A stretch of DNA of 64,000 bases from Dictyostelium discoideum (Eukaryota), in assembly GCA_000004695.1 (NCBI GenBank), contig CM000154.2, forward strand, positions 3,296,001 to 3,360,000. The letters are read 5' to 3'. Each line of letters starts with the position of its first letter. Position 1 is the first letter of the stretch. Both the position numbers and the translations under genes were made by a program. The notes beneath the pieces were generated by a model. It did not search any database. It was not told where the DNA came from and saw nothing but the letters and a program-made list of their open reading frames with translations. Shown here one piece after another: positions 48,400-48,960 of this stretch.

Positions 48400-48960
48400 T
48401 AATTTTTTTTTTTTTTACCCACATTCTATAAAAAAAAAAAAAATTTTGGGAATTTTTTTAAAAGGGATTAAAATTTTCGGAAAGAAATCATTGGGGTGGA
48501 AAAAAAATGGCCATTTTTTTTTCCTAGGATTTGAAAAGGGGAATTTTTTTTTAAATTAAAAAAATAAATAAATTTGAATTTTTTTTTTTTTAAAAATGGA
48601 AAGGGGGCAACTTACTTAAAAACCCGCAAGTTTTAAAAGGGGAAGAAGAATTTATTTTTAATATTGTTTCCCCCCTTTTTTTTTTTTTTTTTTTTTTGGA
48701 AATTTTTCCCCCCCTTTATTTTTAAAAAAAAAAATTTTTGGAAAATAATTTTTATTTTAAAAAAAATTCCGGGGCCAAATTTAAAAAAATTTAAAAAAAT
48801 TTAAAAACCCCCAAAAATAAAAGGGGTTTAAAATCAAAGGGGGGGTTAAAAAAAAAAAAATTTTTGCCAAACCCCTTTGGGGGGGTTTTGGGAATTTGGG
48901 TTTCTTTCCCCTTTTTTTTTTTATTTTTTTCCCAAATTTAATTTTTTTTTTTTCAAATCA
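48400..48960. other. Anomalous homopolymer-stutter region (runs of G, C, A and T such as ggggggg, ccccccc, aaaggggttt); probably low-quality or assembly-edge sequence
   Basis: Composition unlike any other intergenic region in the window. G and C runs are otherwise absent from the non-coding DNA. Confidence 0.5.

Follow-up and report, generated by a model that had tools for sequence, protein, structure and literature searches.

Polymerase slippage at homopolymers is a described source of stutter peaks, which in turn lead to wrong base calls in Sanger sequencing (PMC10643650). Here we analysed a stretch of 64,000 nucleotides from Dictyostelium discoideum (NCBI GenBank assembly GCA_000004695.1, contig CM000154.2, positions 3,296,001 to 3,360,000 of the forward strand), referred to as the window, in which a block of stuttered G and C runs was reported at 48400-48960. 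The window's assembly is presumably the older, Sanger-era AX4 reference of this species. A sequence-only reading had taken the block for low-quality read ends or a mis-assembled gap edge or else, if real, for a very unusual G/C-homopolymer element. Having compared the locus with an independent assembly, we are highly confident that the block is an artefact of consensus base calling in the window's assembly and not a sequence element. This reading is carried by three observations: the independent assembly reproduces the flanks apart from homopolymer lengths, but not the block; the differences follow an instrument-like pattern, with directional copying, base dominance and preserved length; and like errors are found elsewhere in the window's assembly in comparable contexts.

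The block and its neighbourhood

The window has a GC content of about 23% and encodes many poly-Asn tracts. Mean G/C run length over all other 560-base segments of the window is 1.20 ± 0.054, with a maximum of 1.37, whereas the block reaches 2.47 and thus lies about 23 standard deviations from the norm. It holds 13 of the 51 G/C runs of four or more bases in the whole window, and singletons make up 30% of all its runs, as against at least 53% everywhere else. From 48501 to 49000, 83% of the G/C bases touch an identical base, this being the sole 500-base bin above 60%, and at the 150-base scale the three most extreme segments all lie within 48351-48950. The three strings by which the block had been characterized are all present, namely aaaaggggtttaaaatcaaagggggggtt at about 48819-48847, ttccccccctttatt at about 48706-48720 and cccctttgggggggttttggg at 48872-48892. 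The compositional oddity of the block is therefore genuine and far beyond chance, and the claim that it resembles no other sequence in the window was borne out.

The block lies in the spacer between pex1 and the next open reading frame, where it had been placed by the sequence-only reading. Our spliced model of pex1 (44420-44509, 44606-48120 and 48225-48303) gives a product of 1227 aa, the length of the PEX-1N/AAA gene called at the corresponding locus of the independent assembly GCA_054883475.1. The last exon (48225-48303, plus strand), with the stop codon at 48301-48303, is untouched by the artefact. Downstream, a 1283-aa ORF, termed family member B in the earlier reading, runs from 49167 to 53018 on the plus strand, and the 863 bases between the pex1 stop codon and its ATG at 49167 contain the block. 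The corrupted spacer is thus in reality the 3' flank of pex1 together with the promoter region of the 1283-aa ORF. The product of this ORF has an exact record in GCA_054883475.1; it carries a poly-Asn tract of about 50 residues and an (EET)n repeat, and no Pfam hit stands on its record. Of two large contigs carrying the neighbouring proteins, only one has the exact 1283-aa product, so that the other record probably holds a different gene model. No exact record was found for the 1128-aa ORF of pex1, and a protein word search with the C-terminal tail of pex1 gave no match.

Besides the spliced PEX1 AAA-ATPase gene, the window contains an actin gene at 41403-42533. A tRNA-Thr(UGU) gene is located directly upstream of the latter on the minus strand (40512-40601), and its 90 nt are enough length for an intron. 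Two tandem paralogous ORFs of 769 aa, at 17764-20073 and 21807-24116, share 85% identity and carry a Ricin_B_lectin domain (PF00652). The ORFs at 13104-14846, 25520-27130 and 31940-34699 had no exact protein record, and they are probably exons of spliced genes.

Comparison with an independent assembly

Exact protein matches were used to fetch the locus from GCA_054883475.1, a chromosome-level assembly in which it lies on CM142511.1 (5.29 Mb). This was the one independent assembly compared, and global alignments cover positions 7755-56018 of the window, or about 48 kb. An assembly of AX2-214 from Nanopore and Illumina reads was deposited in 2025 (PMC12745789), and GCA_054883475.1 may be that assembly. 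Proteins of the window also match Logan assemblies of the runs SRR28564542 and SRR26869267; a contig of the former aligns to the window over 2634 bases with no mismatch and one gap. Throughout the coding sequence compared, the window and GCA_054883475.1 are identical, from which it follows that the two assemblies represent essentially one genotype.

Over the aligned region the two assemblies differ by homopolymer-length indels and 114 substitutions, and by nothing else. About 102 of these substitutions fall in 48358-48985, so that some 90% of the differences are packed into 1.3% of the length; ten of the remaining 12 lie in 36670-36889, with single ones at 20991 and 28173. From 36.9 to 56.0 kb, all substitutions are confined to 48352-48985, and four small indels also occur at the left end of this discordant stretch. 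The block lies inside it, with the discordance extending slightly further on both sides than the 48400-48960 first proposed. On the left, the stretch is bounded by a tract of 25 A at 48328-48352 (24 in GCA_054883475.1), at the 3' end of which the first discrepancy appears. Just within this boundary, a slippage-prone series of 21 T, (TAAT)n and 14 T occupies 48362-48416, where small indels separate the assemblies. The right boundary is formed by 39 A at 49023-49061 (28 in GCA_054883475.1), beyond which the assemblies are concordant again.

Between these tracts, the 604 bases of 48419-49022 align to GCA_054883475.1 with 96 mismatches and without a single gap, meaning that about 16% of positions differ within a block that is positionally homologous. 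GC content of the same stretch is 24.6% in the window and 17.7% in GCA_054883475.1; in the latter version, G/C runs average 1.28 bases, which is normal for the window. Judged from that version, the real DNA at the block would be an ordinary AT-rich intergenic spacer of 17.7% GC. A genuine G/C-homopolymer element was rejected as a candidate, given that 12 of the 13 runs of four or more bases are missing from GCA_054883475.1. The exception, a GGGG at 48823-48826, is probably real, since it is present in both assemblies. With an AT-rich spacer in the independent assembly and directional neighbour-copy miscalls in the window, the preference of the sequence-only reading for low-quality sequence over a real element was justified.

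Searches for known elements were run on both versions of the block. A tRNA model search detected no tRNA gene in it. Against Rfam, the version in the window returned sub-threshold chance matches only, the best of which reached 24.8 bits where the gathering score is 176, and the true version, that of GCA_054883475.1, returned no match at E ≤1. When both versions were searched against the window for repeats, only low-complexity matches and no second copy were obtained. Class I RNA and DUSE-like motifs near GCAACTTACTTCAAAACCTGCAAG in the true sequence were considered by eye and discarded, a proper DUSE being absent and the hairpin not long enough. A 46-aa ORF arising from the stuttered block has no record, to which we attach very little weight, and an IUPAC DNA pattern spanning both versions found no match in metagenome contigs. 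The block almost certainly holds no biological element that would call for an explanation.

Direction and origin of the discrepancies

We were interested in the relation of each mismatched base to its surroundings. Of the 96 mismatches within the ungapped alignment, 93 have in the window a base equal to one of the two immediate neighbours in GCA_054883475.1, and all 96 have one that is found there within two positions. Permuting the substituted bases gave 51 ± 4 neighbour copies with a maximum of 68 in 10,000 trials, and placing them at random gave 28 ± 4. In the reverse test, the base in GCA_054883475.1 copies a neighbour in the window in only 35 of the 96 cases. Left and right neighbours are copied evenly, with 29 cases exclusive to each and 35 ambiguous. 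Such directional copying implies that the block in the window is the true spacer smeared, and not vice versa.

The copying also depends on the base. A T beside a G was turned into G at 26 of 37 positions, while a G beside a T was lost at none of 34; an A beside a C became C at 10 of 25 and a T beside an A became A at 24 of 100. G thus overwrites T, C overwrites A and A overwrites T, as in the changes from TGT to GGG, from CACAC to CCCCC and from GTGATGA to GGGGGGG, whereas the interiors of runs are altered at 1 of 156 positions. Errors occur at an even density of about 5-13 in every 50 bases over about 550 bases, with no gradient. A smear model consisting of deterministic neighbour bleed weighted by dye raised the agreement from 83.2% to 86.3%, reproducing 36 of the 96 miscalls and adding 18 false ones; fitted in the reverse direction, it gave zero gain. 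The model lends weak backing to the direction of the change, not to the full mechanism. Its limited fit suggests that the miscalls are largely stochastic.

A second, milder patch was observed at 36670-36889, in a spacer rich in T runs, where all ten substitutions relative to GCA_054883475.1 copy an immediate neighbour, including AATTGT read as AAAGGG and CAC read as CCC. Two isolated differences, at 20991 (GAA to GGA) and 28173 (ATG to AGG), are neighbour copies as well. Neighbour-copy errors accordingly belong to the assembly as such and are not tied to the locus of the block.

Tract lengths were recorded separately. They differ between the assemblies at 48193-48216 (24 T in the window and 23 in GCA_054883475.1) and at 49023-49061 (the A tract described above), as well as in 28100-28784, at 17459-17465, at 39909 and at 44583, where runs such as TTTT, AAAA and TTTTTTT are concerned. 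All of these differences lie outside coding sequence, and either assembly may be the correct one. A run of 67 T at 58642-58708, outside the region compared with GCA_054883475.1, was also seen in a spacer, following a short stretch in which G and C come in twos and threes (tttgg, ccc, ggtggccc).

For the miscalls in the block, we infer slippage during Sanger sequencing as the cause. The number and order of bases would be correct, but roughly every sixth base would have been called as the base standing next to it. With the tracts of 25 A, 21 T and 14 T on its left and that of 39 A on its right, the spacer lies isolated amid long homopolymers, so dye-terminator reads entering from both sides may have suffered polymerase slippage in the flanking tracts. 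Past the tracts, n-1, n and n+1 products would then overlap in the trace, or its peaks would at least be poorly resolved, and the base caller could have retained the peak spacing while choosing the strongest dye at each position. The flat density of errors and the edges at A/T tracts make the mixing of slippage phases a better fit than a simple read end. Hence the sequence-only reading appears right as to the low quality of the sequence, whereas an origin at simple read ends fits the data less well, as they show no decaying tail.

It is very unlikely that the block is instead real in the window's strain, as a hypermutated patch left by a burst of template dislocation (transient misalignment) that copied neighbouring bases. 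Dislocation mutagenesis yields substitutions identical to the neighbouring template base, and the differences are of this neighbour-copy type in a patch that adjoins slippage-prone tracts. However, about 100 events would have to fall within 630 bases, when the remaining ~47 kb compared show 12, and they would have to leave length unchanged in the 604-base ungapped stretch, 70% of the T-beside-G opportunities would have been converted, and the resulting composition is absent from the rest of the window. Moreover, all of the coding sequence compared is identical between the two genomes, which implies a very recent common ancestry. The more specific proposal that the block is a hypermutable island, made by replication slippage in a dislocation-type burst between the long homopolymers of an extremely AT-rich genome, is rated as even more doubtful.

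That the window is correct and GCA_054883475.1 in error, its long reads or their polishing having split real G/C homopolymers, is likewise very improbable. The assemblies are also discordant in homopolymer lengths (39 or 28 A, 24 or 23 T), and homopolymers would be the weak point of GCA_054883475.1 if it is a long-read assembly. Long-read homopolymer errors are errors of length, though, and length is unchanged over 604 bases; the reverse test and the reverse fit of the smear model speak against this direction as well, and it is the version in GCA_054883475.1, not that in the window, that has a normal spacer composition. Finally, we give next to no credence to the mis-assembled gap edge put forward earlier, in which low-quality read ends, foreign or out of place, would have been joined where a contig ends, because, even though low-quality read tails resemble the block, the window contains no N, each position of the block has its homologous counterpart in the true spacer (83% identity, no rearrangement), the patch has no second copy in the window, and both flanks are collinear for tens of kb and identical apart from homopolymer lengths.

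Consequences and comparison with known systems

If the block is a base-calling artefact, about 630 bases of Dictyostelium spacer upstream of the 1283-aa gene are some 16% wrong in the window's assembly. In such spacers, errors of this kind would mislead promoter analysis, the design of primers or guides and the calling of variants, and strain comparisons would show a false cluster of SNPs at the block. The neighbour-copy signature, namely an excess of G/C run length where a spacer is enclosed by long tracts of A or T, offers a simple genome-wide screen. The value of the block is therefore practical and not that of a biological discovery: it marks a reference to correct and supplies a signature for finding like patches.

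Real G/C motifs in Dictyostelium spacers provide one comparison. In the AT-rich spacer at 30401-30540, the G/C-rich motifs aacacaaccccctggccag and gggggtggttgtaat stand about 100 bases apart; they are identical in both assemblies and hence real, and may be promoter elements. The block resembles them in showing short G/C runs in an extremely AT-rich spacer and in that its GGGG at 48823 is probably genuine too. It differs in that the motifs are shared by both assemblies, whereas the block loses 12 of its 13 long runs. The other comparison, and the closest known counterpart, is Sanger stutter or an out-of-phase trace after a homopolymer, or else poorly resolved peaks misread by the base caller, with the technology presumed here. 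Error density in the block is flat over about 550 bases and does not climb, and a simple bleed model covers roughly one third of the miscalls, both of which set the block apart from such stutter. In common with it, the block shows copying from adjacent positions, a preserved base count and overwriting that depends on the dye or base, and it lies in an AT-rich region of low complexity with its edges at long A/T tracts.
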